Source of the DNA: Sinorhizobium meliloti
Lineage (GTDB): Bacteria > Pseudomonadota > Alphaproteobacteria > Rhizobiales > Rhizobiaceae
NCBI RefSeq assembly: GCF_017876815.1
Contig: NZ_JAGIOS010000004.1
Span: 1-32,000, forward strand
Length of the DNA stretch: 32,000 nt
Direction of reading: 5' to 3'
Part shown: piece after piece, positions 1 through 25,900 of the stretch
How the letters are laid out: every line of letters begins with the position of its first letter
Position numbering within the stretch: position 1 is the first letter of the stretch
Translations under genes and position numbers: made by a program
The notes under the pieces: model-generated
Database searches by the model: none
Seen by the model: the letters and a program-made list of their open reading frames with translations, nothing else
Told to the model about the DNA's origin: nothing

Positions 1-1969
1 CGAGCGACAGCCGCCGCAGACGCTCCATCATTTGAACGGCCAACAATGAGTGGCCGCCGAGTTCGAAGAAGTTGTCGTGGCGCCCGACCTGCTCGACGCC
101 GAGAAGCTCGGCCCAGATCCCGGCCAGCAGCGTCTCGATCTCGCCCTGCGGCGCCTCGTAGGCCCGACGCGCATAGGCATCGTCGTCGGGGACCGGCAGC
201 GCCTTGCGATCGAGCTTGCCGTTCACCGTCAGCGGCAGTGCATCCAGCCGCACGAAGGCCGACGGCACCATGTAGTCCGGCAGCAGGCCACCCAGATGCG
301 CCCGCAACGACGCAGCAAGCCCGGCGCCATCGGCTTCGGCCGACCCGTCCGTCGTCTTCGCAACCACATAGGCGACGAGCCGCTTGTCGCCCGCCGCATC
401 CGCGTGCGCCACCACCGCGGCATCGCCGACAAGCTCATGCTCCAGCAGCCGGGCGGCGATCTCGCCCGGCTCGATGCGGAAGCCGCGGATCTTCACCTGG
501 TCGTCATTGCGGCCCAGAAACTCGAGATTGCCGTCCGGCAGGTAGCGCGCCAGGTCGCCGCTCCGGTACATCCGGGCGCCGGCCTTGCCGCTGAACGGAT
601 CCGCCAGGAACCGCTCCGCCGTCAGATCCGGACGGTTCAGGTAGCCGCGCGCCACCCCCGCCCCGCCGATATAAAGCTCACCAACCGCCCCAAACGGAAC
701 CGGCTGACCATGGCCGTCAAGCACATAAAGCCGCGTGTTCGCAATCGGACGGCCGATCGGCACATACCGGTGAGGCGCCTCAATTCTCGTGTCGGTAAGA
801 AAGGTGGTCGCCCAAATCGTAGTCTCCGTCGGACCATAAAGATTTCTGAGAGATTTTACCCTTCTGCCGAGGTTCGAGGCCAGTTCTGAAGGCAACGCTT
901 CGCCGCCACACAACGCACTTAAATCGGGCGCACCCTCCCAGCCGGCGTCGAAGAGCATACGCCACGCCGCGGGGTCGCCTGCATCACAGTTATCTTCTGA
1001 TGGGATAGATACCGCTGTAATCCAATAACACTGGTTCCGTGAGCAACAACGACGTTAGCTCCCACGGCCAGTGGCAGATAGAGTTCCAGCCCCGCAATGT
1101 CGAAAGAGATCGTCGTGATCGCGAGGAGTGAATCGCGCTCTGTGAGGCCCGATACATCTAAAAGAGCGCGTAGAACATTGAGAACACTTGCATGCTCGAC
1201 CATGACGCCCTTAGGCGTGCCGGTGGATCCCGATGTGTAGATGACATAGGCGAGATTGCGGGCTGTCAGGCCGAGGGCATGCGGGTCGGGATCGTCAGGG
1301 ACTGGTCGGCCCAAGCGGCATGGCCGCATCGAGATCGACCGCGCTCAGATCGGCGATTGCCTCGGCGCCCAACGCCGCGCGGCCGGCGGCGTCGCAAAGC
1401 AGCAGCCGCGGGCCGGCATCGTCGAGCAACTGCCGCAGCCGTTCGCCGGATAGGCCGGGTCGAGCGGCACATAGGCGCCGCCGGCCTTGAGGATCGCCAG
1501 CAGTCCCACCACCATCGCCGGGCTGCGCTCGACGCAGATCGCCACTGGCTGGTCCGGCCTCACCCCGAGCCCGATCAGATGATGGGCCAGCCGGTTGGCA
1601 TCGGCATTGAGCGCGCCATAGGAGATCGACTGCTCTTCGAAGACCAGTGCGACCGCGTCGGCACCCGGCGCACCTGCGCCTCGAACAGCGCATGCACGCA
1701 AAGATCCGACGGATAGTCCGCTTCCGTCCGGTTCAACTCCTCCAGCAGGTAGCTGCGCTCCTCAGCCGGAAGAATGTCGAGCTCGCGCACCGGCCTATCG
1801 GGCGCTTGCTCCAGCGCGTCGACCAGTTGCTCGAGCGCCCGCTGCATATAGCCGCAGATCCGATCGGCGGAGATCGTTCGACCGCATCCGCCGTGAGCCC
1901 CAGCTCCTGACCAAAATCATCCACCGACAATGTCAGCGGGTAGTTGGTCCGTTCCTCGCCCCCAGCCAT
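1..1969 (-). pseudogene. Frameshift-broken, 3'-partial continuation of the same NRPS (module 10: end of C domain, Gly-type A domain, start of T domain); may be a sequencing artefact rather than a true pseudogene
   Basis: Minus-strand fragments 1733..1969, 1575..1847, 1345..1701 and 919..1329, plus an unlisted frame open to nt 1, together reproduce the C-end/A/T sequence of intact module 5 (16159-19431). Continuity is broken by seven 1-nt deletions relative to the other copies, at 971-974, 1298/1299, 1317-1318, 1448-1449, 1660-1661, 1876 and 1959-1963. The GGHS Ser codon is at 47-49. The Ser-to-Ser distance M9-M10 is 3266 nt, exactly 3273 (the M4-M5 distance) minus 7. Confidence 0.85.
758..1191 (-). 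other. A-domain specificity cassette c (copy 3 of 3), Gly, carrying a 1-nt deletion
   Basis: Nucleotide sequence matches 16975-17409 except that the G5 run is G4 at 971-974, shifting the frame ([12 protein letters not shown] instead of [12 protein letters not shown]). Confidence 0.8.
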
Positions 1970-4900
1970 TCCATGCCGGACAGCACGTCGCTTGTTCCCT
2001 CGCCGGCCATGGCCGGCGTGTTGTGGCGATAGTTCAGCAGCGCACTGAACAGTGGCGCTGGTGCGGCAATATCGCAGCAGCGTTGCGCCAATGCCAGCGA
2101 GGCATGCTCGTGTGAGAGCAATTCGGCCAGACGGGCGTGGGCGATACGCACACTTTCCTCGACCCCGGTCTCATCCAGATCCAGCCGCAACGGCAAGGTA
2201 TTCATGAACAAGCCCATGGCACGGTCGGCGCCGGCACCCGCATGCATGCGGCCGAACAGCACCGTGCCGAACACCACCTGCTCGCGCCCGCTGCTCAGCG
2301 CCACCACCTGGGCCCAGGCCAGATGGCAAAGGCTAGCCAGACTCACCCCCAGCCGCCGCGCCTGGTGGCGCAGCCGATCGTTGAGCGCCTGCGGCAGCAT
2401 CCGCCGTGCCTCGCGGGATCCGCGGCCGTCGCCGTAGACCTCGCTCAGAGCGAACGGCAGGGTCGGCTCGTCGATGTCGGCCAGCATCTCCCGGAAGAAC
2501 GCTTCATGCGCTTTGGCATCCATGCCAAGCCGCGCCTGCGCCACCAGGTTGCGGAACGGCTGCGGCGCTGCAAGCTCATGCGCGCGCCCCTGCAGCACGG
2601 CCCGGACCTCGGCATGCATCACTTCGGCCGTCGTATGATCGCCGATCAGATGGTGCTGCAACACCAAAAGCAGCCAGCGCCCACTGCCCGGTTCGCGCGC
2701 GATCACGAACCGCATCAGCGGCGCCCGGCCAAGGTCGAGACGGTACTGGCGCGGATCGAACCGCCGCCTGAGCTCATCGGCGCCGGAACCATCACAGCCC
2801 TCCAGCTCGACCTCGAGCACATCCAAGGCCGCCTTGCGCCAGACAACCTGCGCCGGGCTCGACAGACCCTCCCAGACAAAGGCCGTGCGCAGAATGTCGT
2901 GGCGGTCGACCACCTGTTGAACCGCAGCAAGGTAGCGATCGAGCACACCCCGCTCGGCAAAGGCCATCTGCGACATCAGGAGATAGGGGTCACCCTGGGT
3001 TGCCAGCAAATGATGGAACAGAATGCCGTCCTGCAGCGGCGACAGGCCATAGATATCCTGGATATTGCCGACGCCGCCGGGCACCGTCGACACGATCCGG
3101 TCGATCTCCGGTTGGGTAAGATCGATCAGCGGCAGCATCTGCGGCGTGATCGCCGTACTCTGTTCCGTGATCGGGTTGGCAGGCACCTCCACCTCCCGGT
3201 GGCTGCCAAGACTGGCGGCCAGATCGGCAAGCATCGGCTTTGCAAATACGGTGCGAACCTCGACCCCGAGCGACAGCCGCCGCAGACGCTCCATCATTTG
3301 AACGGCCAACAATGAGTGGCCGCCGAGCTCGAAGAAGTTGTCGTGGCGCCCGACCTGCTCGACGCCGAGAAGCTCGGCCCAGATCCCGGCCAGCAGCGTC
3401 TCGATCTCGCCCTGCGGCGCCTCGTAGGCCCGACGCGCATAGGCATCGTCGTCGGGGACCGGCAGCGCCTTGCGGTCGAGCTTGCCGTTCACCGTCAGCG
3501 GCAGTGCATCCAGCCGCACGAAGGCCGACGGCACCATGTAGTCCGGTAGCAGGCCACCCAGATGCGCCCGCAACGACGCAGCAAGCCCGGCGCCATCGGC
3601 TTCGGCCGACCCGTCCGTCGTCTTCGCAACCACATAGGCGACGAGCCGCTTGTCGCCCGCCGCATCCGCGTGCGCCACCACCGCGGCATCGCCGACAAGC
3701 TCATGCTCCAGCAGCCGGGCGGCGATCTCGCCCGGCTCGATGCGGAAGCCGCGGATCTTCACCTGGTCGTCATTGCGGCCCAGAAACTCGAGATTGCCGT
3801 CCGGCAGGTAGCGCGCCAGGTCGCCGCTCCGGTACATCCGGGCGCCGGCCTTGCCGCTGAACGGATCCGCCAGGAACCGCTCCGCCGTCAGATCCGGACG
3901 GTTCAGGTAGCCGCGCGCCACCCCCGCCCCGCCGATATAAAGCTCACCAACCGCCCCAAACGGAACCGGCTGACCATGGCCGTCCAGCAGATAGATCCGC
4001 GTGTTCGAGATCGGACGCCCGATCGTTTCGACAACAGCCTGTCCCCTCGGCATGCAAATCCAAGTCGAGTACGTCGTTGTCTCCGAAGGGGCGTACAGAT
4101 TGCAAATCTTCTGGACGCGCGTGCTCTCGAATATCCTCTCGATTAGGTCTGCCTTCACCCGCTCGCCCGCCAAATTGATGACGCTTGCCGATGCCGGCAC
4201 GGCTTTCTGGTTGACCAGAGCGGTGATCGCCGAGGGGACCGTGTTGATCAAGGAGGCATCCACGGGCGTTCGGGCCAGCTTCAGTGCATCCTCGACGAGG
4301 TACAGCTTGCTTCCCTGCGAAAGCGGAAGGAAACACTCGTAAACGGACAGATCAAAACAGACCGAGGTCGAGAACAGCGTGCGCCTGATCTCTGATTCGG
4401 CAAACACGCCGCCACTCCAATGCAGCAGGTTCACTGTGTTCCGATGCTCGACCATGACGCCCTTAGGCGTGCCGGTGGATCCCGATGTGTAGATGACATA
4501 GGCGAGATTGCGGGCTGTCAGGCCGAGGGCATGCGGGTCGGGATCGTCAGCGGACTGGTCGGCCCAGGCGGGCATGGCCGTATCGAGATCGACCGCGCTC
4601 AGATCGGCGATTGCCTCGGCGCCCAACGCCGCGCGGCCGGCGGCGTCGCAAAGCAGCAGCCGCGGGCCGGCATCGTCGAGCAACTGCCGCAGCCGTTCGC
4701 CGGGATAGGCCGGGTCGAGCGGCACATAGGCGCCGCCGGCCTTGAGGATCGCCAGCAGTCCCACCACCATCGCCGGGCTGCGCTCGACGCAGATCGCCAC
4801 TGGCTGGTCCGGCCTCACCCCGAGCCCGATCAGATGATGGGCCAGCCGGTTGGCATCGGCATTGAGCGCGCCATAGGAGATCGACTGCTCTTCGAAGACC

Positions 4901-7900
4901 AGTGCGACCGCGTCGGGCACCCGGCGCACCTGCGCCTCGAACAGCGCATGCACGCAAAGATCCGACGGATAGTCCGCTTCCGTCCGGTTCAACTCCTCCA
5001 GCAGGTAGCTGCGCTCCTCAGCCGGAAGAATGTCGAGCTCGCGCACCGGCCTATCGGGCGCTTGCTCCAGCGCGTCGACCAGTTGCTCGAGCGCCCGCTG
5101 CATATAGCCGCAGATCCGATCGGCGGAGATCGGTTCGACCGCATCCGCCGTGAGCCCCAGCTCCTGACCAAAATCATCCACCGACAATGTCAGCGGGTAG
5201 TTGGTCCGTTCCTCGTCCCCCAGCCATTCCATGCCGGACAGCACGTCGCTTGTTCCCTCGCCGGCCATGGCCGGCGTGTTGTGGCGATAGTTCAGCAGCG
5301 CACTGAACAGTGGCGCTGGTGCGGCAATATCGCTGCAGCGTTGCGCCAATGCCAGCGAGGCATGCTCGTGTGAGAGCAATTCGGCCAGACGGGCGTGGGC
5401 GATACGCACACTTTCCTCGACCCCGGTCTCATCCAGATCCAGCCGCAACGGCAAGGTATTCATGAACAAGCCCATGGCACGGTCGGCGCCGGCACCCGCA
5501 TGCATGCGGCCGAACAGCACCGTGCCGAACACCACCTGCTCGCGCCCGCTGCTCAGCGCCACCACCTGGGCCCAGGCCAGATGGCAAAGGCTAGCCAGAC
5601 TCACCCCCAGCCGCCGCGCCTGGTGGCGCAGCCGATCGTTGAGCGCCTGCGGCAGCATCCGCCGTGCCTCGCGGGATCCGCGGCCGTCGCCGTAGACCTC
5701 GCTCAGAGCGAACGGCAGGGTCGGCTCGTCGATGTCGGCCAGCATCTCCCGGAAGAACGCTTCATGCGCTTTGGCATCCATGCCAAGCCGCGCCTGCGCC
5801 ACCAGGTTGCGGAACGGCTGCGGCGCTGCAAGCTCATGCGCGCGCCCCTGCAGCACGGCCCGGACCTCGGCATGCATCACTTCGGCCGTCGTATGATCGC
5901 CGATCAGATGGTGCTGCAACACCAAAAGCAGCCAGCGCCCACTGCCCGGTTCGCGCGCGATCACGAACCGCATCAGCGGCGCCCGGCCAAGGTCGAGACG
6001 GTACTGGCGCGGATCGAACCGCCGCCTGAGCTCATCGGCGCCGGAACCATCACAGCCCTCCAGCTCGACCTCGAGCACATCCAAGGCCGCCTTGCGCCAG
6101 ACAACCTGCGCCGGGCTCGACAGACCCTCCCAGACAAAGGCCGTGCGCAGAATGTCGTGGCGGTCGACCACCTGTTGAACCGCAGCAAGGTAGCGATCGA
6201 GCACACCCCGCTCGGCAAAGGCCATCTGCGACATCAGGAGATAGGGGTCACCCTGGGTTGCCAGCAAATGATGGAACAGAATGCCGTCCTGCAGCGGCGA
6301 CAGGCCATAGATATCCTGGATATTGCCGACGCCGCCGGGCACCGTCGACACGATCCGGTCGATCTCCGGTTGGGTAAGATCGATCAGCGGCAGCATCTGC
6401 GGCGTGATCGCCGTACTCTGTTCCGTGATCGGGTTGGCAGGCACCGCCACCTCCCGGTGGCTGCCAAGACTGGCGGCCAGATCGGCAAGCATCGGCTTTG
6501 CAAATACGGTGCGAACCTCGACCCCGAGCGACAGCCGCCGCAGACGCTCCATCATTTGAACGGCCAACAATGAGTGGCCGCCGAGTTCGAAGAAGTTGTC
6601 GTGGCGCCCGACCTGCTCGACGCCGAGAAGCTCGGCCCAGATCCCGGCCAGCAGCGTCTCGATCTCGCCCTGCGGCGCCTCGTAGGCCCGACGCGCATAG
6701 GCATCGTCGTCGGGGACCGGCAGCGCCTTGCGGTCGAGCTTGCCGTTCACCGTCAGCGGCAGTGCATCCAGCCGCACGAAGGCCGACGGCACCATGTAGT
6801 CCGGTAGCAGGCCACCCAGATGCGCCCGCAACGACGCAGCAAGCCCGGCGCCATCGGCTTCGGCCGACCCGTCCGTCGTCTTCGCAACCACATAGGCGAC
6901 GAGCCGCTTGTCGCCCGCCGCATCCGCGTGCGCCACCACCGCGGCATCGCCGACAAGCTCATGCTCCAGCAGCCGGGCGGCGATCTCGCCCGGCTCGATG
7001 CGGAAGCCGCGGATCTTCACCTGGTCGTCATTGCGGCCCAGAAACTCGAGATTGCCGTCCGGCAGGTAGCGCGCCAGGTCGCCGCTCCGGTACATCCGGG
7101 CGCCGGCCTTGCCGCTGAACCGATCCGCCAGGAACCGCTCCGCCGTCAGATCCGGACGGTTCAGGTAGCCGCGCGCCACCCCCGCCCCGCCGATATAAAG
7201 CTCACCAACCGCCCCAAACGGGACGGGTGCGCCATGACCGTCAAGCACATAAAGCCGCGTGTTCGCAATCGGACGGCCGATCGGGATTGACGTAAGGCCT
7301 TCTACGTCGCCCGTTATTTCGAATGCGGCGCATCCAACGGTGGCCTCTGTCGGACCAAAATGGTTGATCAGGCGCACATTTGGAAAACGCCGCTGCCAAA
7401 GTTGCATGTCTGCTGGAACCAGCGATTCGCCACCAACCATAAGTGCTTTAGTTGGAGGTTGTCCCTCGTTATCATCAATCTTTTTGTTAAGAATGCTCAG
7501 ATGCGAGGGAGTAACTTTAACCAAGTCGAAGGCTTGTCCCTTCTTCAATTCACCGAGAGAGATAATTTGGACAGTTGGATCTAGAAGATGAAGTTTCGTT
7601 CCCGCCAACAGCGGACCGAATAGGGTCGTAACGATGCCATCAAAACTCATTGAATGCGTTACAGGCGAGCCGTTGGACGTTCTTTTGTAAAAGCTTCGAT
7701 TTGACCACTGCAAATAGTTCGACAAGTGTTGATGCTCGACCATGACGCCCTTAGGCGTGCCGGTGGATCCCGATGTGTAGATGACATAGGCGAGATTGCG
7801 GGCTGTCAGGCCGAGGGCATGCGGGTCGGGATCGTCAGCGGACTGGTCGGCCCAGGCGGGCATGGCTGCATCGAGATCGACCGCGCTCAGATCGGCGATT

Positions 7901-10900
7901 GCCTCGGCGCCCAACGCCGCGCGACCGGCGGCGTCGCAAAGCAGCAGCCGCGGGCCGGCATCGTCGAGCAACTGCCGCAGCCGTTCGCCGGGATAGGCCG
8001 GGTCGAGCGGCACATAGGCGCCGCCGGCCTTGAGGATCGCCAGCAGTCCCACCACCATCGCCGGGCTGCGCTCGACGCAGATCGCCACTGGCTGGTCCGG
8101 CCTCACCCCGAGCCCGATCAGATGATGGGCCAGCCGGTTGGCATCGGCATTGAGCGCGCCATAGGAGATCGACTGCTCTTCGAAGACCAGTGCGACCGCG
8201 TCGGGCACCCGGCGCACCTGCGCCTCGAACAGCGCATGCACGCAAAGATCCGACGGATAGTCCGCTTCCGTCCGGTTCAACTCCTCCAGCAGGTAGCTGC
8301 GCTCGTCGGGAGGCAGGATGTCCAGCTCGGACACCGGCTGCTCGGCATCGGCAAGCATCGCCCGCAGCAGCGCCAGCAGATAACCACATTGCCGCTCGAT
8401 CGTCGCCCGGTCGAACAACGCCGTCGCATAACCGAGAGTCCCGGCGATGGCCTCGCCCTGCTCTCCCAGGTTCAGTTCCAGATCGAACTTGACCTGATCG
8501 AGCCCCTCGCCCGCAGCCTCCACCTGCAGCCCCGGCAGGTCCAATGACCCGCCGGTGTTGTTCTGCCAGGCCAGTCCCACCTGGAACAACGGCGTGTGAC
8601 CGAGAGCCCGGGGCGGCTGGACGATCTCCACCACCTGCTCGAACGGCAGGTCCTGATGATCCTGCGCAGTCAAGGCCGCGCGCCGCGCCCGTTCCAGGAG
8701 ATCGGACACGCTCGGCTCGCCCGACAGATCGATTCGAACCGCCAGGGTGTTGACGAAGAAACCGATTAGATCCTCGATCTCGCGGCGACGACGATTGGCC
8801 GTCGGCACACCGATCACGATATCGTCCTGCCCGGACAGGCGCGACAGCACCGCAGCCCAGGCCGCCAGCACTGTCATGAACAACGTCGTGCCATGCTGCC
8901 GGCTCAGCCGCTTGAGCCCGCGCGTCAGAGCCTCATCGATGATAACCGGCACGCTGGCTCCGGCAAACGACTGCTGTGCCGGCCGCGGCCGGTCCGTCGG
9001 CAGCGCCAGACGGGCCGGGGCGCCAGACAGGGTGTCGCGCCAATACTGCGCCTGACGCTGCAGCCGCTCGCCGGACAACCATTGCCGTTGCCAGGCGGCA
9101 TAATCCGGATACTGGATCGCCAGCGGCGGCAAAGGATCGTCCTCTCCAGCCTCAAACGCGCGGTAAAGGCTGCTGAGCTCGCGCACCAGCACCCCCATCG
9201 ACCAGCCGTCCGAGACTATGTGATGCTGCGTCAGCAGAAAGACGTGCTCCTCATCCGCCAGCCGGATCAGCCGGCCGCGGATCAGCGGCTCGCGCGCCAG
9301 ATCGAACGGCGTGCGCGCCTCTTCTTGGCACAGATCCAAAAGCGCGGCTTGCGCATCCGGCCTGTCCCGCAGATCGTGCTCGACCACCGGCAATCCCCTG
9401 TCCCCGGACAAAATCTGGACCTGCGGGTCATCCTCTCCGGCGACGAACGTGCAGCGCAGCGCCTCGTGACGGGCAAACAGGCGGTCAAGGCTGCGCCGCC
9501 AGGCGACACGGTCGAGTCTGCCCTGCAGTCGCCACCCCAGGGGAATGTTATAGTTCGTGCTGTCTTCGTCCAACTGTGCCAAGAACCAGAGACGCTGCTG
9601 CGAATAGGACAGCGGAAGCGCACCATCACGTCCGACTGGCATGATGACCGGTGCTGTCTGCGCACCAGAACCGTTCAGCACTTCGCCAACACTTAGCGCC
9701 AAATCGGCCAATGTTGGCTTGGCGAACAGGATCGCCAGCGGCAGCTCCACTGCCAAGGCCTCGGTCAGCCGGACGAGCACGCGCACCGCCAACAATGAGT
9801 GGCCGCCGAGCTCGAAGAAGTTGTCGTGGCGCCCGACCTGCTCGACGCCGAGAAGCTCGGCCCAGATCCCGGCCAGCAGCGTCTCGATCTCGCCCTGCGG
9901 CGCCTCGTAGGCCCGACGCGCATAGGCATCGTCGTCGGGGACCGGCAGCGCCTTGCGGTCGAGCTTGCCGTTCACCGTCAGCGGCAGTGCATCCAGCCGC
10001 ACGAAGGCCGACGGCACCATGTAGTCCGGTAGCAGGCCACCCAGATGCGCCCGCAACGACGCAGCAAGCCCGGCGCCATCGGCTTCGGCCGACCCGTCCG
10101 TCGTCTTCGCAACCACATAGGCGACGAGCCGCTTGTCGCCCGCCGCATCCGCGTGCGCCACCACCGCGGCATCGCCGACAAGCTCATGCTCCAGCAGCCG
10201 GGCGGCGATCTCGCCCGGCTCGATGCGGAAGCCGCGGATCTTCACCTGGTCGTCATTGCGGCCCAGAAACTCGAGATTGCCGTCCGGCAGGTAGCGCGCC
10301 AGGTCGCCGCTCCGGTACATCCGGGCGCCGGCCTTGCCGCTGAACGGATCCGCCAGGAACCGCTCCGCCGTCAGATCCGGACGGTTCAGGTAGCCGCGCG
10401 CCACCCCCGCCCCGCCGATATAAAGCTCACCAACCGCCCCAAACGGAACCGGCTGACCATGGCCGTCCAGCAGATAGATCCGCGTGTTCGAGATCGGACG
10501 CCCGATCGTTTCGACAACAGCCTGTCCCCTCGGCATGCAAATCCAAGTCGAGTACGTCGTTGTCTCCGAAGGGGCGTACAGATTGCAAATCTTCTGGACG
10601 CGCGTGCTCTCGAATATCCTCTCGATTAGGTCTGCCTTCACCCGCTCGCCCGCCAAATTGATGACGCTTGCCGATGCCGGCACGGCTTTCTGGTTGACCA
10701 GAGCGGTGATCGCCGAGGGGACCGTGTTGATCAAGGAGGCATCCACGGGCGTTCGGGCCAGCTTCAGTGCATCCTCGACGAGGTACAGCTTGCTTCCCTG
10801 CGAAAGCGGAAGGAAACACTCGTAAACGGACAGATCAAAACAGACCGAGGTCGAGAACAGCGTGCGCCTGATCTCTGATTCGGCAAACACGCCGCCACTC

Positions 10901-13900
10901 CAATGCAGCAGGTTCACTGTGTTCCGATGCTCGACCATGACGCCCTTAGGCGTGCCGGTGGATCCCGATGTGTAGATGACATAGGCGAGATTGCGGGCTG
11001 TCAGGCCGAGGGCATGCGGGTCGGGATCGTCAGCGGACTGGTCGGCCCAGGCGGGCATGGCCGTATCGAGATCGACCGCGCTCAGATCGGCGATTGCCTC
11101 GGCGCCCAACGCCGCGCGACCGGCGGCGTCGCAAAGCAGCAGCCGCGGGCCGGCATCGTCGAGCAACTGCCGCAGCCGTTCGCCGGGATAGGCCGGGTCG
11201 AGCGGCACATAGGCGCCGCCGGCCTTGAGGATCGCCAGCAGTCCCACCACCATCGCCGGGCTGCGCTCGACGCAGATCGCCACTGGCTGGTCCGGCCTCA
11301 CCCCGAGCCCGATCAGATGATGGGCCAGCCGGTTGGCATCGGCATTGAGCGCGCCATAGGAGATCGACTGCTCTTCGAAGACCAGTGCGACCGCGTCGGG
11401 CACCCGGCGCACCTGCGCCTCGAACAGCGCATGCACGCAAAGATCCGACGGATAGTCCGCTTCCGTCCGGTTCAACTCCTCCAGCAGGTAGCTGCGCTCG
11501 TCGGGAGGCAGGATGTCCAGCTCGGACACCGGCTGCTCGGCATCGGCAAGCATCGCCCGCAGCAGCGCCAGCAGATAACCACATTGCCGCTCGATCGTCG
11601 CCCGGTCGAACAACGCCGTCGCATAACCGAGAGTCCCGGCGATGGCCTCGCCCTGCTCTCCCAGGTTCAGTTCCAGATCGAACTTGACCTGATCGAGCCC
11701 CTCGCCCGCAGCCTCCACCTGCAGCCCCGGCAGGTCCAATGACCCGCCGGTGTTGTTCTGCCAGGCCAGTCCCACCTGGAACAACGGCGTGTGACCGAGA
11801 GCCCGGGGCGGCTGGACGATCTCCACCACCTGCTCGAACGGCAGGTCCTGATGATCCTGCGCAGTCAAGGCCGCGCGCCGCGCCCGTTCCAGGAGATCGG
11901 ACACGCTCGGCTCGCCCGACAGATCGATTCGAACCGCCAGGGTGTTGACGAAGAAACCGATTAGATCCTCGATCTCGCGGCGACGACGATTGGCCGTCGG
12001 CACACCGATCACGATATCGTCCTGCCCGGACAGGCGCGACAGCACCGCAGCCCAGGCCGCCAGCACTGTCATGAACAACGTCGTGCCATGCTGCCGGCTC
12101 AGCCGCTTGAGCCCGCGCGTCAGAGCCTCATCGATGATAACCGGCACGCTGGCTCCGGCAAACGACTGCTGTGCCGGCCGCGGCCGGTCCGTCGGCAGCG
12201 CCAGACGGGCCGGGGCGCCAGACAGGGTGTCGCGCCAATACTGCGCCTGACGCTGCAGCCGCTCGCCGGACAACCATTGCCGTTGCCAGGCGGCATAATC
12301 CGGATACTGGATCGCCAGCGGCGGCAAAGGATCGTCCTCTCCAGCCTCAAACGCGCGGTAAAGGCTGCTGAGCTCGCGCACCAGCACCCCCATCGACCAG
12401 CCGTCCGAGACTATGTGATGCTGCGTCAGCAGAAAGACGTGCTCCTCATCCGCCAGCCGGATCAGCCGGCCGCGGATCAGCGGCTCGCGCGCCAGATCGA
12501 ACGGCGTGCGCGCCTCTTCTTGGCACAGATCCAAAAGCGCGGCTTGCGCATCCGGCCTGTCCCGCAGATCGTGCTCGACCACCGGCAATCCCCTGTCCCC
12601 GGACAAAATCTGGACCTGCGGGTCATCCTCTCCGGCGACGAACGTGCAGCGCAGCGCCTCGTGACGGGCAAACAGGCGGTCAAGGCTGCGCCGCCAGGCG
12701 ACACGGTCGAGTCTGCCCTGCAGTCGCCACCCCAGGGGAATGTTATAGTTCGTGCTGTCTTCGTCCAACTGTGCCAAGAACCAGAGACGCTGCTGCGAAT
12801 AGGACAGCGGAAGCGCACCATCACGTCCGACTGGCATGATGACCGGTGCTGTCTGCGCACCAGAACCGTTCAGCACTTCGCCAACACTTAGCGCCAAATC
12901 GGCCAATGTTGGCTTGGCGAACAGGATCGCCAGCGGCAGCTCCACTGCCAAGGCCTCGGTCAGCCGGACGAGCACGCGCACCGCCAACAATGAGTGGCCG
13001 CCGAGCTCGAAGAAGTTGTCGTGGCGCCCGACCTGCTCGACGCCGAGAAGCTCGGCCCAGATCCCGGCCAGCAGCGTCTCGATCTCGCCCTGCGGCGCCT
13101 CGTAGGCCCGACGCGCATAGGCATCGTCGTCGGGGACCGGCAGCGCCTTGCGGTCGAGCTTGCCGTTCACCGTCAGCGGCAGTGCATCCAGCCGCACGAA
13201 GGCCGACGGCACCATGTAGTCCGGTAGCAGGCCACCCAGATGCGCCCGCAACGACGCAGCAAGCCCGGCGCCATCGGCTTCGGCCGACCCGTCCGTCGTC
13301 TTCGCAACCACATAGGCGACGAGCCGCTTGTCGCCCGCCGCATCCGCGTGCGCCACCACCGCGGCATCGCCGACAAGCTCATGCTCCAGCAGCCGGGCGG
13401 CGATCTCGCCCGGCTCGATGCGGAAGCCGCGGATCTTCACCTGGTCGTCATTGCGGCCCAGAAACTCGAGATTGCCGTCCGGCAGGTAGCGCGCCAGGTC
13501 GCCGCTCCGGTACATCCGGGCGCCGGCCTTGCCGCTGAACGGATCCGCCAGGAACCGCTCCGCCGTCAGATCCGGACGGTTCAGGTAGCCGCGCGCCACC
13601 CCCGCCCCGCCGATATAAAGCTCACCAACCGCCCCAAACGGAACCGGCTGACCATGGCCGTCAAGCACATAAAGCCGCGTGTTCGCAATCGGACGGCCGA
13701 TCGGCACATACCGGTGAGGCGCCTCAATTCTCGTGTCGGTAAGAAAGGTGGTCGCCCAAATCGTAGTCTCCGTCGGACCATAAAGATTTCTGAGAGATTT
13801 TACCCTTCTGCCGAGGTTCGAGGCCAGTTCTGAAGGCAACGCTTCGCCGCCACACAACGCACTTAAATCGGGCGCACCCTCCCAGCCGGCGTCGAAGAGC

Positions 13901-16900
13901 ATACGCCACGCCGCGGGGGTCGCCTGCATCACAGTTATCTTCTGATGGGATAGATACCGCTGTAATCCAATAACACTGGTTCCGTGAGCAACAACGACGT
14001 TAGCTCCCACGGCCAGTGGCAGATAGAGTTCCAGCCCCGCAATGTCGAAAGAGATCGTCGTGATCGCGAGGAGTGAATCGCGCTCTGTGAGGCCCGATAC
14101 ATCTAAAAGAGCGCGTAGAACATTGAGAACACTTGCATGCTCGACCATGACGCCCTTAGGCGTGCCGGTGGATCCCGATGTGTAGATGACATAGGCGAGA
14201 TTGCGGGCTGTCAGGCCGAGGGCATGCGGGTCGGGATCGTCAGCGGACTGGTCGGCCCAAGCGGGCATGGCCGCATCGAGATCGACCGCGCTCAGATCGG
14301 CGATTGCCTCGGCGCCCAACGCCGCGCGACCGGCGGCGTCGCAAAGCAGCAGCCGCGGGCCGGCATCGTCGAGCAACTGCCGCAGCCGTTCGCCGGGATA
14401 GGCCGGGTCGAGCGGCACATAGGCGCCGCCGGCCTTGAGGATCGCCAGCAGTCCCACCACCATCGCCGGGCTGCGCTCGACGCAGATCGCCACTGGCTGG
14501 TCCGGCCTCACCCCGAGCCCGATCAGATGATGGGCCAGCCGGTTGGCATCGGCATTGAGCGCGCCATAGGAGATCGACTGCTCTTCGAAGACCAGTGCGA
14601 CCGCGTCGGGCACCCGGCGCACCTGCGCCTCGAACAGCGCATGCACGCAAAGATCCGACGGATAGTCCGCTTCCGTCCGGTTCAACTCCTCCAGCAGGTA
14701 GCTGCGCTCCTCAGCCGGAAGAATGTCGAGCTCGCGCACCGGCCTATCGGGCGCTTGCTCCAGCGCGTCGACCAGTTGCTCGAGCGCCCGCTGCATATAG
14801 CCGCAGATCCGATCGGCGGAGATCGGTTCGACCGCATCCGCCGTGAGCCCCAGCTCCTGACCAAAATCATCCACCGACAATGTCAGCGGGTAGTTGGTCC
14901 GTTCCTCGCCCCCCAGCCATTCCATGCCGGACAGCACGTCGCTTGTTCCCTCGCCGGCCATGGCCGGCGTGTTGTGGCGATAGTTCAGCAGCGCACTGAA
15001 CAGTGGCGCTGGTGCGGCAATATCGCTGCAGCGTTGCGCCAATGCCAGCGAGGCATGCTCGTGTGAGAGCAATTCGGCCAGACGGGCGTGGGCGATACGC
15101 ACACTTTCCTCGACCCCGGTCTCATCCAGATCCAGCCGCAACGGCAAGGTATTCATGAACAAGCCCATGGCACGGTCGGCGCCGGCACCCGCATGCATGC
15201 GGCCGAACAGCACCGTGCCGAACACCACCTGCTCGCGCCCGCTGCTCAGCGCCACCACCTGGGCCCAGGCCAGATGGCAAAGGCTAGCCAGACTCACCCC
15301 CAGCCGCCGCGCCTGGTGGCGCAGCCGATCGTTGAGCGCCTGCGGCAGCATCCGCCGTGCCTCGCGGGATCCGCGGCCGTCGCCGTAGACCTCGCTCAGA
15401 GCGAACGGCAGGGTCGGCTCGTCGATGTCGGCCAGCATCTCCCGGAAGAACGCTTCATGCGCTTTGGCATCCATGCCAAGCCGCGCCTGCGCCACCAGGT
15501 TGCGGAACGGCTGCGGCGCTGCAAGCTCATGCGCGCGCCCCTGCAGCACGGCCCGGACCTCGGCATGCATCACTTCGGCCGTCGTATGATCGCCGATCAG
15601 ATGGTGCTGCAACACCAAAAGCAGCCAGCGCCCACTGCCCGGTTCGCGCGCGATCACGAACCGCATCAGCGGCGCCCGGCCAAGGTCGAGACGGTACTGG
15701 CGCGGATCGAACCGCCGCCTGAGCTCATCGGCGCCGGAACCATCACAGCCCTCCAGCTCGACCTCGAGCACATCCAAGGCCGCCTTGCGCCAGACAACCT
15801 GCGCCGGGCTCGACAGACCCTCCCAGACAAAGGCCGTGCGCAGAATGTCGTGGCGGTCGACCACCTGTTGAACCGCAGCAAGGTAGCGATCGAGCACACC
15901 CCGCTCGGCAAAGGCCATCTGCGACATCAGGAGATAGGGGTCACCCTGGGTTGCCAGCAAATGATGGAACAGAATGCCGTCCTGCAGCGGCGACAGGCCA
16001 TAGATATCCTGGATATTGCCGACGCCGCCGGGCACCGTCGACACGATCCGGTCGATCTCCGGTTGGGTAAGATCGATCAGCGGCAGCATCTGCGGCGTGA
16101 TCGCCGTACTCTGTTCCGTGATCGGGTTGGCAGGCACCGCCACCTCCCGGTGGCTGCCAAGACTGGCGGCCAGATCGGCAAGCATCGGCTTTGCAAATAC
16201 GGTGCGAACCTCGACCCCGAGCGACAGCCGCCGCAGACGCTCCATCATTTGAACGGCCAACAATGAGTGGCCGCCGAGTTCGAAGAAGTTGTCGTGGCGC
16301 CCGACCTGCTCGACGCCGAGAAGCTCGGCCCAGATCCCGGCCAGCAGCGTCTCGATCTCGCCCTGCGGCGCCTCGTAGGCCCGACGCGCATAGGCATCGT
16401 CGTCGGGGACCGGCAGCGCCTTGCGATCGAGCTTGCCGTTCACCGTCAGCGGCAGTGCATCCAGCCGCACGAAGGCCGACGGCACCATGTAGTCCGGCAG
16501 CAGGCCACCCAGATGCGCCCGCAACGACGCAGCAAGCCCGGCGCCATCGGCTTCGGCCGACCCGTCCGTCGTCTTCGCAACCACATAGGCGACGAGCCGC
16601 TTGTCGCCCGCCGCATCCGCGTGCGCCACCACCGCGGCATCGCCGACAAGCTCATGCTCCAGCAGCCGGGCGGCGATCTCGCCCGGCTCGATGCGGAAGC
16701 CGCGGATCTTCACCTGGTCGTCATTGCGGCCCAGAAACTCGAGATTGCCGTCCGGCAGGTAGCGCGCCAGGTCGCCGCTCCGGTACATCCGGGCGCCGGC
16801 CTTGCCGCTGAACGGATCCGCCAGGAACCGCTCCGCCGTCAGATCCGGACGGTTCAGGTAGCCGCGCGCCACCCCCGCCCCGCCGATATAAAGCTCACCA

Positions 16901-19900
16901 ACCGCCCCAAACGGAACCGGCTGACCATGGCCGTCAAGCACATAAAGCCGCGTGTTCGCAATCGGACGGCCGATCGGCACATACCGGTGAGGCGCCTCAA
17001 TTCTCGTGTCGGTAAGAAAGGTGGTCGCCCAAATCGTAGTCTCCGTCGGACCATAAAGATTTCTGAGAGATTTTACCCTTCTGCCGAGGTTCGAGGCCAG
17101 TTCTGAAGGCAACGCTTCGCCGCCACACAACGCACTTAAATCGGGCGCACCCTCCCAGCCGGCGTCGAAGAGCATACGCCACGCCGCGGGGGTCGCCTGC
17201 ATCACAGTTATCTTCTGATGGGATAGATACCGCTGTAATCCAATAACACTGGTTCCGTGAGCAACAACGACGTTAGCTCCCACGGCCAGTGGCAGATAGA
17301 GTTCCAGCCCCGCAATGTCGAAAGAGATCGTCGTGATCGCGAGGAGTGAATCGCGCTCTGTGAGGCCCGATACATCTAAAAGAGCGCGTAGAACATTGAG
17401 AACACTTGCATGCTCGACCATGACGCCCTTAGGCGTGCCGGTGGATCCCGATGTGTAGATGACATAGGCGAGATTGCGGGCTGTCAGGCCGAGGGCATGC
17501 GGGTCGGGATCGTCAGCGGACTGGTCGGCCCAAGCGGGCATGGCCGCATCGAGATCGACCGCGCTCAGATCGGCGATTGCCTCGGCGCCCAACGCCGCGC
17601 GGCCGGCGGCGTCGCAAAGCAGCAGCCGCGGGCCGGCATCGTCGAGCAACTGCCGCAGCCGTTCGCCGGGATAGGCCGGGTCGAGCGGCACATAGGCGCC
17701 GCCGGCCTTGAGGATCGCCAGCAGTCCCACCACCATCGCCGGGCTGCGCTCGACGCAGATCGCCACTGGCTGGTCCGGCCTCACCCCGAGCCCGATCAGA
17801 TGATGGGCCAGCCGGTTGGCATCGGCATTGAGCGCGCCATAGGAGATCGACTGCTCTTCGAAGACCAGTGCGACCGCGTCGGGCACCCGGCGCACCTGCG
17901 CCTCGAACAGCGCATGCACGCAAAGATCCGACGGATAGTCCGCTTCCGTCCGGTTCAACTCCTCCAGCAGGTAGCTGCGCTCCTCAGCCGGAAGAATGTC
18001 GAGCTCGCGCACCGGCCTATCGGGCGCTTGCTCCAGCGCGTCGACCAGTTGCTCGAGCGCCCGCTGCATATAGCCGCAGATCCGATCGGCGGAGATCGGT
18101 TCGACCGCATCCGCCGTGAGCCCCAGCTCCTGACCAAAATCATCCACCGACAATGTCAGCGGGTAGTTGGTCCGTTCCTCGTCCCCCAGCCATTCCATGC
18201 CGGACAGCACGTCGCTTGTTCCCTCGCCGGCCATGGCCGGCGTGTTGTGGCGATAGTTCAGCAGCGCACTGAACAGTGGCGCTGGTGCGGCAATATCGCT
18301 GCAGCGTTGCGCCAATGCCAGCGAGGCATGCTCGTGTGAGAGCAATTCGGCCAGACGGGCGTGGGCGATACGCACACTTTCCTCGACCCCGGTCTCATCC
18401 AGATCCAGCCGCAACGGCAAGGTATTCATGAACAAGCCCATGGCACGGTCGGCGCCGGCACCCGCATGCATGCGGCCGAACAGCACCGTGCCGAACACCA
18501 CCTGCTCGCGCCCGCTGCTCAGCGCCACCACCTGGGCCCAGGCCAGATGGCAAAGGCTAGCCAGACTCACCCCCAGCCGCCGCGCCTGGTGGCGCAGCCG
18601 ATCGTTGAGCGCCTGCGGCAGCATCCGCCGTGCCTCGCGGGATCCGCGGCCGTCGCCGTAGACCTCGCTCAGAGCGAACGGCAGGGTCGGCTCGTCGATG
18701 TCGGCCAGCATCTCCCGGAAGAACGCTTCATGCGCTTTGGCATCCATGCCAAGCCGCGCCTGCGCCACCAGGTTGCGGAACGGCTGCGGCGCTGCAAGCT
18801 CATGCGCGCGCCCCTGCAGCACGGCCCGGACCTCGGCATGCATCACTTCGGCCGTCGTATGATCGCCGATCAGATGGTGCTGCAACACCAAAAGCAGCCA
18901 GCGCCCACTGCCCGGTTCGCGCGCGATCACGAACCGCATCAGCGGCGCCCGGCCAAGGTCGAGACGGTACTGGCGCGGATCGAACCGCCGCCTGAGCTCA
19001 TCGGCGCCGGAACCATCACAGCCCTCCAGCTCGACCTCGAGCACATCCAAGGCCGCCTTGCGCCAGACAACCTGCGCCGGGCTCGACAGACCCTCCCAGA
19101 CAAAGGCCGTGCGCAGAATGTCGTGGCGGTCGACCACCTGTTGAACCGCAGCAAGGTAGCGATCGAGCACACCCCGCTCGGCAAAGGCCATCTGCGACAT
19201 CAGGAGATAGGGGTCACCCTGGGTTGCCAGCAAATGATGGAACAGAATGCCGTCCTGCAGCGGCGACAGGCCATAGATATCCTGGATATTGCCGACGCCG
19301 CCGGGCACCGTCGACACGATCCGGTCGATCTCCGGTTGGGTAAGATCGATCAGCGGCAGCATCTGCGGCGTGATCGCCGTACTCTGTTCCGTGATCGGGT
19401 TGGCAGGCACCGCCACCTCCCGGTGGCTGCCAAGACTGGCGGCCAGATCGGCAAGCATCGGCTTTGCAAATACGGTGCGAACCTCGACCCCGAGCGACAG
19501 CCGCCGCAGACGCTCCATCATTTGAACGGCCAACAATGAGTGGCCGCCGAGCTCGAAGAAGTTGTCGTGGCGCCCGACCTGCTCGACGCCGAGAAGCTCG
19601 GCCCAGATCCCGGCCAGCAGCGTCTCGATCTCGCCCTGCGGCGCCTCGTAGGCCCGACGCGCATAGGCATCGTCGTCGGGGACCGGCAGCGCCTTGCGGT
19701 CGAGCTTGCCGTTCACCGTCAGCGGCAGTGCATCCAGCCGCACGAAGGCCGACGGCACCATGTAGTCCGGTAGCAGGCCACCCAGATGCGCCCGCAACGA
19801 CGCAGCAAGCCCGGCGCCATCGGCTTCGGCCGACCCGTCCGTCGTCTTCGCAACCACATAGGCGACGAGCCGCTTGTCGCCCGCCGCATCCGCGTGCGCC

Positions 19901-22900
19901 ACCACCGCGGCATCGCCGACAAGCTCATGCTCCAGCAGCCGGGCGGCGATCTCGCCCGGCTCGATGCGGAAGCCGCGGATCTTCACCTGGTCGTCATTGC
20001 GGCCCAGAAACTCGAGATTGCCGTCCGGCAGGTAGCGCGCCAGGTCGCCGCTCCGGTACATCCGGGCGCCGGCCTTGCCGCTGAACGGATCCGCCAGGAA
20101 CCGCTCCGCCGTCAGATCCGGACGGTTCAGGTAGCCGCGCGCCACCCCCGCCCCGCCGATATAAAGCTCACCAACCGCCCCAAACGGAACCGGCTGACCA
20201 TGGCCGTCCAGCAGATAGATCCGCGTGTTCGAGATCGGACGCCCGATCGTTTCGACAACAGCCTGTCCCCTCGGCATGCAAATCCAAGTCGAGTACGTCG
20301 TTGTCTCCGAAGGGGCGTACAGATTGCAAATCTTCTGGACGCGCGTGCTCTCGAATATCCTCTCGATTAGGTCTGCCTTCACCCGCTCGCCCGCCAAATT
20401 GATGACGCTTGCCGATGCCGGCACGGCTTTCTGGTTGACCAGAGCGGTGATCGCCGAGGGGACCGTGTTGATCAAGGAGGCATCCACGGGCGTTCGGGCC
20501 AGCTTCAGTGCATCCTCGACGAGGTACAGCTTGCTTCCCTGCGAAAGCGGAAGGAAACACTCGTAAACGGACAGATCAAAACAGACCGAGGTCGAGAACA
20601 GCGTGCGCCTGATCTCTGATTCGGCAAACACGCCGCCACTCCAATGCAGCAGGTTCACTGTGTTCCGATGCTCGACCATGACGCCCTTAGGCGTGCCGGT
20701 GGATCCCGATGTGTAGATGACATAGGCGAGATTGCGGGCTGTCAGGCCGAGGGCATGCGGGTCGGGATCGTCAGCGGACTGGTCGGCCCAGGCGGGCATG
20801 GCCGTATCGAGATCGACCGCGCTCAGATCGGCGATTGCCTCGGCGCCCAACGCCGCGCGACCGGCGGCGTCGCAAAGCAGCAGCCGCGGGCCGGCATCGT
20901 CGAGCAACTGCCGCAGCCGTTCGCCGGGATAGGCCGGGTCGAGCGGCACATAGGCGCCGCCGGCCTTGAGGATCGCCAGCAGTCCCACCACCATCGCCGG
21001 GCTGCGCTCGACGCAGATCGCCACTGGCTGGTCCGGCCTCACCCCGAGCCCGATCAGATGATGGGCCAGCCGGTTGGCATCGGCATTGAGCGCGCCATAG
21101 GAGATCGACTGCTCTTCGAAGACCAGTGCGACCGCGTCGGGCACCCGGCGCACCTGCGCCTCGAACAGCGCATGCACGCAAAGATCCGACGGATAGTCCG
21201 CTTCCGTCCGGTTCAACTCCTCCAGCAGGTAGCTGCGCTCCTCAGCCGGAAGAATGTCGAGCTCGCGCACCGGCCTATCGGGCGCTCGCTCCAGCGCGTC
21301 GACCAGTTGCTCGAGCGCCCGCTGCATATAGCCGCAGATCCGATCGGCGGAGATCGGTTCGACCGCATCCGCCGTGAGCCCCAGCTCCTGACCAAAATCA
21401 TCCACCGACAATGTCAGCGGGTAGTTGGTCCGTTCCTCGCCCCCCAGCCATTCCATGCCGGACAGCACGTCGCTTGTTCCCTCGCCGGCCATGGCCGGCG
21501 TGTTGTGGCGATAGTTCAGCAGCGCACTGAACAGTGGCGCTGGTGCGGCAATATCGCTGCAGCGTTGCGCCAATGCCAGCGAGGCATGCTCGTGTGAGAG
21601 CAATTCGGCCAGACGGGCGTGGGCGATACGCACACTTTCCTCGACCCCGGTCTCATCCAGATCCAGCCGCAACGGCAAGGTATTCATGAACAAGCCCATG
21701 GCACGGTCGGCGCCGGCACCCGCATGCATGCGGCCGAACAGCACCGTGCCGAACACCACCTGCTCGCGCCCGCTGCTCAGCGCCACCACCTGGGCCCAGG
21801 CCAGATGGCAAAGGCTAGCCAGACTCACCCCCAGCCGCCGCGCCTGGTGGCGCAGCCGATCGTTGAGCGCCTGCGGCAGCATCCGCCGTGCCTCGCGGGA
21901 TCCGCGGCCGTCGCCGTAGACCTCGCTCAGAGCGAACGGCAGGGTCGGCTCGTCGATGTCGGCCAGCATCTCCCGGAAGAACGCTTCATGCGCTTTGGCA
22001 TCCATGCCAAGCCGCGCCTGCGCCACCAGGTTGCGGAACGGCTGCGGCGCTGCAAGCTCATGCGCGCGCCCCTGCAGCACGGCCCGGACCTCGGCATGCA
22101 TCACTTCGGCCGTCGTATGATCGCCGATCAGATGGTGCTGCAACACCAAAAGCAGCCAGCGCCCACTGCCCGGTTCGCGCGCGATCACGAACCGCATCAG
22201 CGGCGCCCGGCCAAGGTCGAGACGGTACTGGCGCGGATCGAACCGCCGCCTGAGCTCATCGGCGCCGGAACCATCACAGCCCTCCAGCTCGACCTCGAGC
22301 ACATCCAAGGCCGCCTTGCGCCAGACAACCTGCGCCGGGCTCGACAGACCCTCCCAGACAAAGGCCGTGCGCAGAATGTCGTGGCGGTCGACCACCTGTT
22401 GAACCGCAGCAAGGTAGCGATCGAGCACACCCCGCTCGGCAAAGGCCATCTGCGACATCAGGAGATAGGGGTCACCCTGGGTTGCCAGCAAATGATGGAA
22501 CAGAATGCCGTCCTGCAGCGGCGACAGGCCATAGATATCCTGGATATTGCCGACGCCGCCGGGCACCGTCGACACGATCCGGTCGATCTCCGGTTGGGTA
22601 AGATCGATCAGCGGCAGCATCTGCGGCGTGATCGCCGTACTCTGTTCCGTGATCGGGTTGGCAGGCACCGCCACCTCCCGGTGGCTGCCAAGACTGGCGG
22701 CCAGATCGGCAAGCATCGGCTTTGCAAATACGGTGCGAACCTCGACCCCGAGCGACAGCCGCCGCAGACGCTCCATCATTTGAACGGCCAACAATGAGTG
22801 GCCGCCGAGTTCGAAGAAGTTGTCGTGGCGCCCGACCTGCTCGACGCCGAGAAGCTCGGCCCAGATCCCGGCCAGCAGCGTCTCGATCTCGCCCTGCGGC

Positions 22901-25900
22901 GCCTCGTAGGCCCGACGCGCATAGGCATCGTCGTCGGGGACCGGCAGCGCCTTGCGGTCGAGCTTGCCGTTCACCGTCAGCGGCAGTGCATCCAGCCGCA
23001 CGAAGGCCGACGGCACCATGTAGTCCGGTAGCAGGCCACCCAGATGCGCCCGCAACGACGCAGCAAGCCCGGCGCCATCGGCTTCGGCCGACCCGTCCGT
23101 CGTCTTCGCAACCACATAGGCGACGAGCCGCTTGTCGCCCGCCGCATCCGCGTGCGCCACCACCGCGGCATCGCCGACAAGCTCATGCTCCAGCAGCCGG
23201 GCGGCGATCTCGCCCGGCTCGATGCGGAAGCCGCGGATCTTCACCTGGTCGTCATTGCGGCCCAGAAACTCGAGATTGCCGTCCGGCAGGTAGCGCGCCA
23301 GGTCGCCGCTCCGGTACATCCGGGCGCCGGCCTTGCCGCTGAACCGATCCGCCAGGAACCGCTCCGCCGTCAGATCCGGACGGTTCAGGTAGCCGCGCGC
23401 CACCCCCGCCCCGCCGATATAAAGCTCACCAACCGCCCCAAACGGGACGGGTGCGCCATGACCGTCAAGCACATAAAGCCGCGTGTTCGCAATCGGACGG
23501 CCGATCGGCACATTCGTCGATGCGGAAAGATCTGCAGGGATGTCATGGAAAGCACAACCGACAACCGCTTCCGTCGGGCCATACTCGTTGACCATTCTAG
23601 CCGCCGGCTGGATCTGACGCCATAGCTCGACCGTCGAAGACGACAATGCCTCACCGCCAATGACGAGCACCTCCACCTGACTGGCATCTCCAGCCGACTG
23701 CAGTTGCTGTCCAAGAACATCCAGATGGCTCGGGGTGACATTGACCAGCCCGCACGGTGTGCCGACCCTTGACCTGATCCCCTCGACCTCGTCCCCCTCT
23801 TTCGTAAGCAATGCATGGCCGCCAGAGACCAAAGGCGCAAACAGGCTGTTGACCGTGGCATCGAAGGCGAGCGAAGAGGAGACGACGGATGAGGATATGG
23901 GAGCGTAGCTCTCACGAGCCCAGCTTAGATAATTGGTCATCCCGCGATGCTCGACCATGACGCCCTTAGGCGTGCCGGTGGATCCCGATGTGTAGATGAC
24001 ATAGGCGAGATTGCGGGCTGTCAGGCCGAGGGCATGCGGGTCGGGATCGTCAGCGGACTGGTCGGCCCAGGCGGGCATGGCTGCATCGAGATCGACCGCG
24101 CTCAGATCGGCGATTGCCTCGGCGCCCAACGCCGCGCGACCGGCGGCGTCGCAAAGCAGCAGCCGCGGGCCGGCATCGTCGAGCAACTGCCGCAGCCGTT
24201 CGCCGGGATAGGCCGGGTCGAGCGGCACATAGGCGCCGCCGGCCTTGAGGATCGCCAGCAGTCCCACCACCATCGCCGGGCTGCGCTCGACGCAGATCGC
24301 CACTGGCTGGTCCGGCCTCACCCCGAGCCCGATCAGATGATGGGCCAGCCGGTTGGCATCGGCATTGAGCGCGCCATAGGAGATCGACTGCTCTTCGAAG
24401 ACCAGTGCGACCGCGTCGGGCACCCGGCGCACCTGCGCCTCGAACAGCGCATGCACGCAAAGATCCGACGGATAGTCCGCTTCCGTCCGGTTCAACTCCT
24501 CCAGCAGGTAGCTGCGCTCCTCAGCCGGAAGAATGTCGAGCTCGCGCACCGGCCTATCGGGCGCTTGCTCCAGCGCGTCGACCAGTTGCTCGAGCGCCCG
24601 CTGCATATAGCCGCAGATCCGATCGGCGGAGATCGGTTCGACCGCATCCGCCGTGAGCCCCAGCTCCTGACCAAAATCATCCACCGACAATGTCAGCGGG
24701 TAGTTGGTCCGTTCCTCGTCCCCCAGCCATTCCATGCCGGACAGCACGTCGCTTGTTCCCTCGCCGGCCATGGCCGGCGTGTTGTGGCGATAGTTCAGCA
24801 GCGCACTGAACAGTGGCGCTGGTGCGGCAATATCGCTGCAGCGTTGCGCCAATGCCAGCGAGGCATGCTCGTGTGAGAGCAATTCGGCCAGACGGGCGTG
24901 GGCGATACGCACACTTTCCTCGACCCCGGTCTCATCCAGATCCAGCCGCAACGGCAAGGTATTCATGAACAAGCCCATGGCACGGTCGGCGCCGGCACCC
25001 GCATGCATGCGGCCGAACAGCACCGTGCCGAACACCACCTGCTCGCGCCCGCTGCTCAGCGCCACCACCTGGGCCCAGGCCAGATGGCAAAGGCTAGCCA
25101 GACTCACCCCCAGCCGCCGCGCCTGGTGGCGCAGCCGATCGTTGAGCGCCTGCGGCAGCATCCGCCGTGCCTCGCGGGATCCGCGGCCGTCGCCGTAGAC
25201 CTCGCTCAGAGCGAACGGCAGGGTCGGCTCGTCGATGTCGGCCAGCATCTCCCGGAAGAACGCTTCATGCGCTTTGGCATCCATGCCAAGCCGCGCCTGC
25301 GCCACCAGGTTGCGGAACGGCTGCGGCGCTGCAAGCTCATGCGCGCGCCCCTGCAGCACGGCCCGGACCTCGGCATGCATCACTTCGGCCGTCGTATGAT
25401 CGCCGATCAGATGGTGCTGCAACACCAAAAGCAGCCAGCGCCCACTGCCCGGTTCGCGCGCGATCACGAACCGCATCAGCGGCGCCCGGCCAAGGTCGAG
25501 ACGGTACTGGCGCGGATCGAACCGCCGCCTGAGCTCATCGGCGCCGGAACCATCACAGCCCTCCAGCTCGACCTCGAGCACATCCAAGGCCGCCTTGCGC
25601 CAGACAACCTGCGCCGGGCTCGACAGACCCTCCCAGACAAAGGCCGTGCGCAGAATGTCGTGGCGGTCGACCACCTGTTGAACCGCAGCAAGGTAGCGAT
25701 CGAGCACACCCCGCTCGGCAAAGGCCATCTGCGACATCAGGAGATAGGGGTCACCCTGGGTTGCCAGCAAATGATGGAACAGAATGCCGTCCTGCAGCGG
25801 CGACAGGCCATAGATATCCTGGATATTGCCGACGCCGCCGGGCACCGTCGACACGATCCGGTCGATCTCCGGTTGGGTAAGATCGATCAGCGGCAGCATC

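Follow-up and report, generated by a model that had tools for sequence, protein, structure and literature searches.

The window analyzed here, bases 1–32000 (32 kb) of C4, a 229,537-bp contig representing an accessory plasmid of Sinorhizobium meliloti, contains a huge minus-strand open reading frame (ORF; 1933–31971; 10,012 aa from the first ATG) composed of repeating ~3.27-kb units. Near its end, a stretch with seven private single-base deletions (971–1963, minus strand) breaks the frame in one of its NRPS modules, raising the question of whether these record the truncating decay of a giant gene or errors in the deposited consensus. The initial annotation of this stretch had entertained both, with a preference for under-called homopolymers or insufficient polishing in a multi-mapping repeat, and this preference is supported by all the evidence gathered below. 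To this our analysis adds that the circular contig starts at base 1 of the window, that the deletions straddle the resulting junction, and that the gene continues past it.

A giant NRPS gene cut by the ends of a circular contig

The genome (7.34 Mb) is assembled as four contigs of 3.9, 1.65, 1.56, and 0.23 Mb, with C2 and C3 being the pSymB-type and pSymA-type replicons of S. meliloti, respectively. On C4, each unit of the giant ORF displays a Condensation, an AMP-binding, and a PP-binding domain (Pfam), and the resulting modules are near-identical except for cassettes of 0.45 kb. NRPS units also occupy the last 36 kb of the contig. When aligned to the paralogous units, the last base of C4 falls on 16217 and its first base on 16218, amounting to a seamless join, and a stop-free frame of 666 aa crosses the junction from 973 through base 1 into 229537–228516. 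Thus, C4 is a circle that was opened midway through a PCP domain, with the gene running on past the cut. The linearization point (position 1, the first base of C4, joining 229537) is placed by Pfam in mid-PCP, away from any gene boundary. An untrimmed overlap of the contig ends could be ruled out: the opening 7.7 kb of C4 and its counterpart at the other end differ in their unit lengths and cassettes, and the end of C4 matches 7731–16217, not 1–8487.

Read across the junction, NRPS gene 1 (minus strand; 1–32000 in the window) extends from an ATG at C4:33048 to base 1 and then from 229537 to 213205, and, if uninterrupted, would code for an N-terminal Formyl_trans_N domain followed by 15 C-A-PCP modules (Pfam). 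Gene 2 (213214–192872) contributes six modules, with the final one showing the architecture C-A-PCP-Thioesterase (Pfam). Together they constitute an assembly line of 21 modules (C4:192872–229537 plus 1–33048), whose repeated C/AMP-binding/PP-binding domains and terminal Thioesterase identify it as a modular, type I non-ribosomal peptide synthetase (NRPS). The lack of a release domain, which the initial annotation had anticipated were the truncation genuine, is therefore an effect of the window edge, as gene 2 ends in C-A-PCP-TE. As assembled, gene 1 measures 49,381 nt; adding the 8 nucleotides that it lacks relative to the paralogs (or 11 with an in-frame triplet) yields an exact multiple of 3, implying that, apart from the deletions, a single frame connects the start codon (ATG) at 33048 with the stop that follows 213205. 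From the N- to the C-terminus, the order of the cassettes in this plasmid is B B B A C C A E A C / C A B G A // D A F B G C (here and below, a single slash marks the contig junction and a double slash the gene boundary). The true gene 1 is most likely uninterrupted, with a predicted architecture of F-(C-A-PCP)x15, and followed by gene 2 with (C-A-PCP)x6-TE.

Gene 1 contains a 15.8-kb direct repeat, and the cut falls inside one of its two copies. Copy A (C4:221055–229537 plus 1–7284, the latter being its right-hand part; 15,767 bp) holds the junction and all the deletions, while copy B (7731–23508), its intact and error-free paralog 16.2 kb away, is 99.886% identical to it. Both copies are on the minus strand, and each spans about five modules of the same gene. 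They are separated solely by a unique A-domain specificity cassette of 446 bp (7285–7730, minus strand), which is also the first unique anchor encountered rightward of the junction. Copies A and B differ by 7 substitutions and 9 deletion events, with no deletions found in the other 12.8 kb of copy A or in copy B. Their near-identity could be due to strong gene conversion or to the block having been duplicated very recently.

Nine deletions on the two sides of the junction

Alignment of window positions 1–2300 to the best paralog (16218–18524), both by BLAST and globally, returned 7 single-base gaps and 1 mismatch, thereby recovering the seven deletions first reported against the intact copies at the same sites. 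At 971 a run of five Gs is reduced to four; at 1299 the C is missing from CAGCGGA; at 1317, 1448, and 1660 three Gs are in each case reduced to two; at 1876 GG is reduced to G; and at 1959 a T or C is missing ahead of a run of five Cs. Within one NRPS module, they extend from the C-terminal part of the C domain (about 84% through it) to mid-adenylation domain. The TGA (1933–1935, minus strand) that ends the 10,012-aa ORF is reached only via the frame shift at 1959 and right after it, as originally reported. The truncated product had been described as ending after the C domain; by Pfam, the ORF stops short of that, having covered approximately 84% of the condensation domain. The original reading that 758–1963 is devoid of substitutions holds over a longer range, with none in the alignment of 1–2075 and the first mismatch at 2076, where a private A replaces the T found in 11 paralogs and all units of the relatives. 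A second private substitution is seen at 3188, with a T in place of the G that all 20 remaining units carry. Neither variant occurs in any of those 20 units or in the relatives. Both lie just outside the deletion cluster and may belong to the same low-quality patch as further consensus errors.

The cluster extends across the junction. At C4:228515 a G is missing from CCCGCAT, a further frameshifting 1-bp deletion, and at C4:228833 there is an in-frame 3-bp deletion (GCT), both private to the unit to the left of the junction. Beyond these two, the junction-spanning sequence shows no difference from 7731–18524 in the 7.4 kb leftward. In total, there are nine deletion events, all between −1023 and +1958 from the junction, with no insertion and with zero substitutions in the entire cluster from 228515 to 1959. 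Of the eight 1-bp deletions, six fall in G or C runs and those at 1299 and 228515 are non-homopolymeric, and the 700–970 bp or so closest to the junction on either side are error-free. With the missing bases restored, each of the two junction units comes to exactly 3273 bp, like its paralogs. If the nine events were uniformly distributed along the 15.8-kb copy, the probability of all falling within ±1958 bp of the junction would be about 4 × 10−6.

The 7.3-Mb genome holds a single instance of each deleted 24-mer, as against 4–20 of the intact version, and when all 21 units are aligned with MAFFT, no conserved column shows a private 1-bp deletion except in the two units flanking the junction. 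The remaining private states of the 21 units fall either within a unique specificity cassette or where gene 1 meets gene 2. None of the nine deletions is carried by the other 19 units, the partner repeat copy, or the approximately 60 units of five related plasmids.

As a baseline for natural divergence, 287 kb of pairwise alignments between other repeats of the same genome, namely rRNA operons and IS copies, display 861 substitutions and 88 gap openings, i.e., an indel fraction of 0.093 or about 10 substitutions per indel, with many pairs being free of indels. Given that fraction, at least 9 of the 11 private events being indels has a probability of 2 × 10−8. A genome-wide high indel error is ruled out by these mostly indel-free rRNA and IS copies, together with the 0.12 or so 1-bp indels per kb in the NRPS flanks relative to the plasmid of strain ml46. 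Nor do the other replicons suggest that contig ends are generally faulty in this assembly. In NZ_CP021795.1, the two ends of C2 adjoin each other with about 100% identity; those of C3 do likewise in pSmeSM11c of strain SM11, with the last 5 kb matching perfectly; and those of C1 are contiguous in a related genome, with an intact 714-aa ORF crossing the C1 junction. Against a 94%-identical relative, C1 shows one 1-bp gap at −1183, where an ORF has its extreme 5′ edge. Hence, poor quality is limited to the end that lies in the 15.8-kb repeat.

About 3.7 kb before the end of C3, an alpha/beta-hydrolase (haloperoxidase-like) gene looks frameshifted by eye. An assembly error was ruled out in this case by the perfect match of the 5-kb stretch in S. 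meliloti SM11 pSmeSM11c, and, judging from this shared sequence, the gene is a genuine pseudogene common to the two.

Orthologous loci in related plasmids

The flanks of the NRPS locus are 99.9% identical to those in pMl1 of S. meliloti ml46 and ml56. Across 40.4 kb of flanks, the comparison with ml46 yields 15 substitutions, five 1-bp indels, and one 7-bp indel. With 9 events in 3.0 kb as against 6 indel events in these 40.4 kb, the junction patch is about 20-fold denser in such events (Fisher P = 1 × 10−7). One of the flank differences, a single base at C4:38297 relative to CP140885.1 (ml46; ~185.3–186.7 kb), falls in a gene for a PLP-dependent transferase. This gene has no CDS listed in ml46, is a 1335-bp CDS in ml56 and 1132, and is an open frame in C4, suggesting that the difference is probably a frameshift error of ml46, not of C4, and that at least one of the six flank indels is probably ml46's own.

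Comparison with other assemblies of the same species had been proposed as a check on the deletions. In related plasmids, the deleted variants, as well as the A at 2076 and the T at 3188, are absent from the units of S. meliloti ml46 and ml56, from those of 1132 and AK21, and from those of S. medicae WSM419. Gene 1 and gene 2 are both intact in ml46 (33,192 and 20,337 bp, respectively), 1132 (29,997 and 20,337 bp), AK21 (23,325 and 23,592 bp), and WSM419 (26,748 and 26,745 bp). Furthermore, the chimeric peptides created by the frameshifts (minus-strand ORFs 919–1329 and 1345–1701) are found in one contig only, C4 itself, among 15 billion proteins.

These loci are orthologous, with flanks 99.9% identical, yet their module number and cassette order vary. 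The order in ml46 is B B B A C C A E C A // D A F B G C, and our array departs from its closest relatives exactly around the junction, with E A C / C A B G A as against E C A in ml46 and 1132. The flank-to-flank distance exceeds that of ml46 by about 16.2 kb, equal to one repeat period. Gene 1 has 15 modules here as compared to 7–10 in the relatives with intact genes, while gene 2 (D A F B G C) is more conserved. The locus shares its family, two-gene layout, and 4-bp overlap with the homogenized (“unit-and-linker” or concertedly evolving) NRPS arrays of S. medicae WSM419 pSMED03 and S. meliloti ml46 pMl1, and differs from them in the 15-module gene 1 (versus 7–10) with its internal 15.8-kb direct repeat.

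A second long-read assembly shows damage at the same locus. Relative to ml46, the array of ml56 (CP140923.1) has 32 indel events and 19 substitutions, and its NRPS is annotated as several fragments. The lesions noted for record positions 131630–132057 and 141635–159046 comprise a patch of 430 bp with 25 small insertions, 1-bp indels scattered in the NRPS, and a 17.7-kb deletion relative to ml46; no indels separate ml56 from ml46 in a 6.6-kb flank. The ml56 lesions probably represent assembly errors or a collapsed repeat. Their domination by indels suggests that the same NRPS locus draws consensus errors in another long-read assembly.

Consensus error and its alternatives

The variants around the junction are private to one repeat copy with error-free versions in its paralogs; their spectrum is one of indels only, mostly deletions in short homopolymers; and their position is tied to an assembly coordinate, not to a biological landmark. 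Accordingly, we posit with a probability of roughly 0.87 that the seven deletions are a local consensus or polishing artifact of long-read assembly rather than mutations. The eighth 1-bp deletion, at 228515, would likewise be a consensus error, as would probably the 3-bp deletion at 228833. The errors fill the middle of the split repeat copy on both sides of the cut, for which we propose the following mechanism. Reads spanning the cut would be unable to align end to end at the split copy and would fit the intact partner copy 16.2 kb away perfectly, leaving the split copy with little long-read consensus support. Any short-read polishing would also fail, as correct reads would go to the 4–20 error-free paralogs. 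Two observations fit this model less well: coverage falling towards the contig end would not predict the clean innermost 700–970 bp, and the 1-bp deletions at 1299 and 228515, two out of eight, lie outside homopolymers.

Both elements of this scenario have precedents. In the Polypolish study (Wick and Holt 2022, PMC8812927), reads favor the error-free copy of a repeat, such that the error in the other copy stays uncorrected. The present deletions resemble residual errors of this type in being frameshifting, mostly homopolymeric and restricted to one repeat copy with the others clean; they differ in being concentrated in about 3 kb at the linearization point instead of being scattered over the repeat family. 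Circlator (Hunt et al. 2015, PMC4699355) addressed the low quality of contig ends and the need for polishing after circularization. As in that case, the errors are at both ends of a contig representing a circular replicon; unlike in that case, the ends of the other replicons are clean, as are the innermost 700–970 bp on each side. Given the clean ends of those replicons, a contig end by itself appears insufficient, and the context of the 15.8-kb repeat seems to be required.

Bacterial pseudogene decay is deletion-biased, and one could view the deposited deletions at face value as eight real frameshifts that split gene 1 after about 9.8 modules, leaving the five downstream modules untranslated and gene 2 without an upstream partner. 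A locus whose module number and order differ among strains is evolutionarily labile, which would also accommodate such a loss. Indeed, like genuine frameshifted NRPS pseudogenes, this is a giant ORF broken by frameshifts and truncated in a C domain. However, it departs from them in having no accompanying substitutions or downstream stops, in that its changes are unshared and in being tied to an assembly coordinate. Zero substitutions against nine deletions stands in stark contrast to the 861 substitutions and 88 gap openings of the other repeats; the prior chance that a cluster would straddle an arbitrary assembly coordinate is about 1.3%; and no lesion is common to any of ml46, ml56, 1132, AK21, or WSM419. 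Moreover, a gene with eight true frameshifts is improbable given that the 16 kb of gene 1 downstream of the cluster remain free of stops and private changes and that the frame is restored by the addition of 8 or 11 nucleotides. We hence consider the truncating decay offered in the initial annotation to be highly improbable, a cluster lacking substitutions and anchored to the junction giving it no support. The short G runs at several of the sites might alternatively bring to mind a contingency locus with programmed or phase-variable frameshifting at homopolymer tracts. However, these tracts are just 2–5 bases long as opposed to the long tracts of such loci, two sites are not homopolymers at all, eight simultaneous off states never restore the frame, and the same tracts are unaltered in 20 paralogs and all relatives. 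Phase variation is thus effectively excluded by tract length.

A different concern is that the junction itself is structurally mis-assembled or derives from a mixed plasmid population, making the count of 15 modules in gene 1 wrong or variable. This is no true alternative, for the deletions would still be artifacts, but a more severe version of the consensus-error explanation. The error patch would then mark a thinly supported bridge, which would tally with the array differing from ml46 and 1132 exactly around the junction, with the excess of about 16.2 kb over ml46 between flanks that are 99.9% identical, and with a 15.8-kb repeat of 99.9% identity being near the resolving limit of typical long reads. 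Against this, the repeat is present on both sides of the unique cassette at 7285–7730, which requires two copies; the cassette contexts G-A followed by the gene boundary, and A-B-G, sit 8–16 kb inside the contig; the junction units reach exactly 3273 bp after the missing bases are added; and the ends of C4 are not duplicates of one another. On balance, we regard a structural error as unlikely, though clearly less so than pseudogenization.

Taking the deletions as consensus errors, the deposited sequence makes a giant NRPS resemble a truncated pseudogene accompanied by several orphan fragments, and analyses of gene content, pseudogene counts or biosynthetic clusters of the C4 plasmid would be misled by it. 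More generally, it illustrates a failure mode in which a circular contig cut inside a long near-identical repeat retains unpolished errors at the cut; rotation of the contig followed by repeat-aware re-polishing would fix them. The seven deletions are thus almost certainly an artifact and not a real biological feature, and by themselves offer no new biology. Gene 1, possibly of about 49 kb with 15 modules, is of some natural-product interest. If the eight 1-bp deletions are errors and the module count is right, a reading that is slightly more likely than not, gene 1 is a single ORF of about 49.4 kb (~16,460 codons) with a formyltransferase domain and 15 modules, which together with gene 2 would make a 21-residue, probably N-formylated peptide, and whose extra five modules would stem from a very recent 16-kb block duplication. 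The kolossin synthetase gene spans 49 kbp and specifies a protein of 1.8 MDa (bioRxiv 10.1101/2025.10.02.680031). If true, the ~49.4-kb gene 1 of this S. meliloti plasmid would match or slightly exceed it as the largest single-chain bacterial NRPS.
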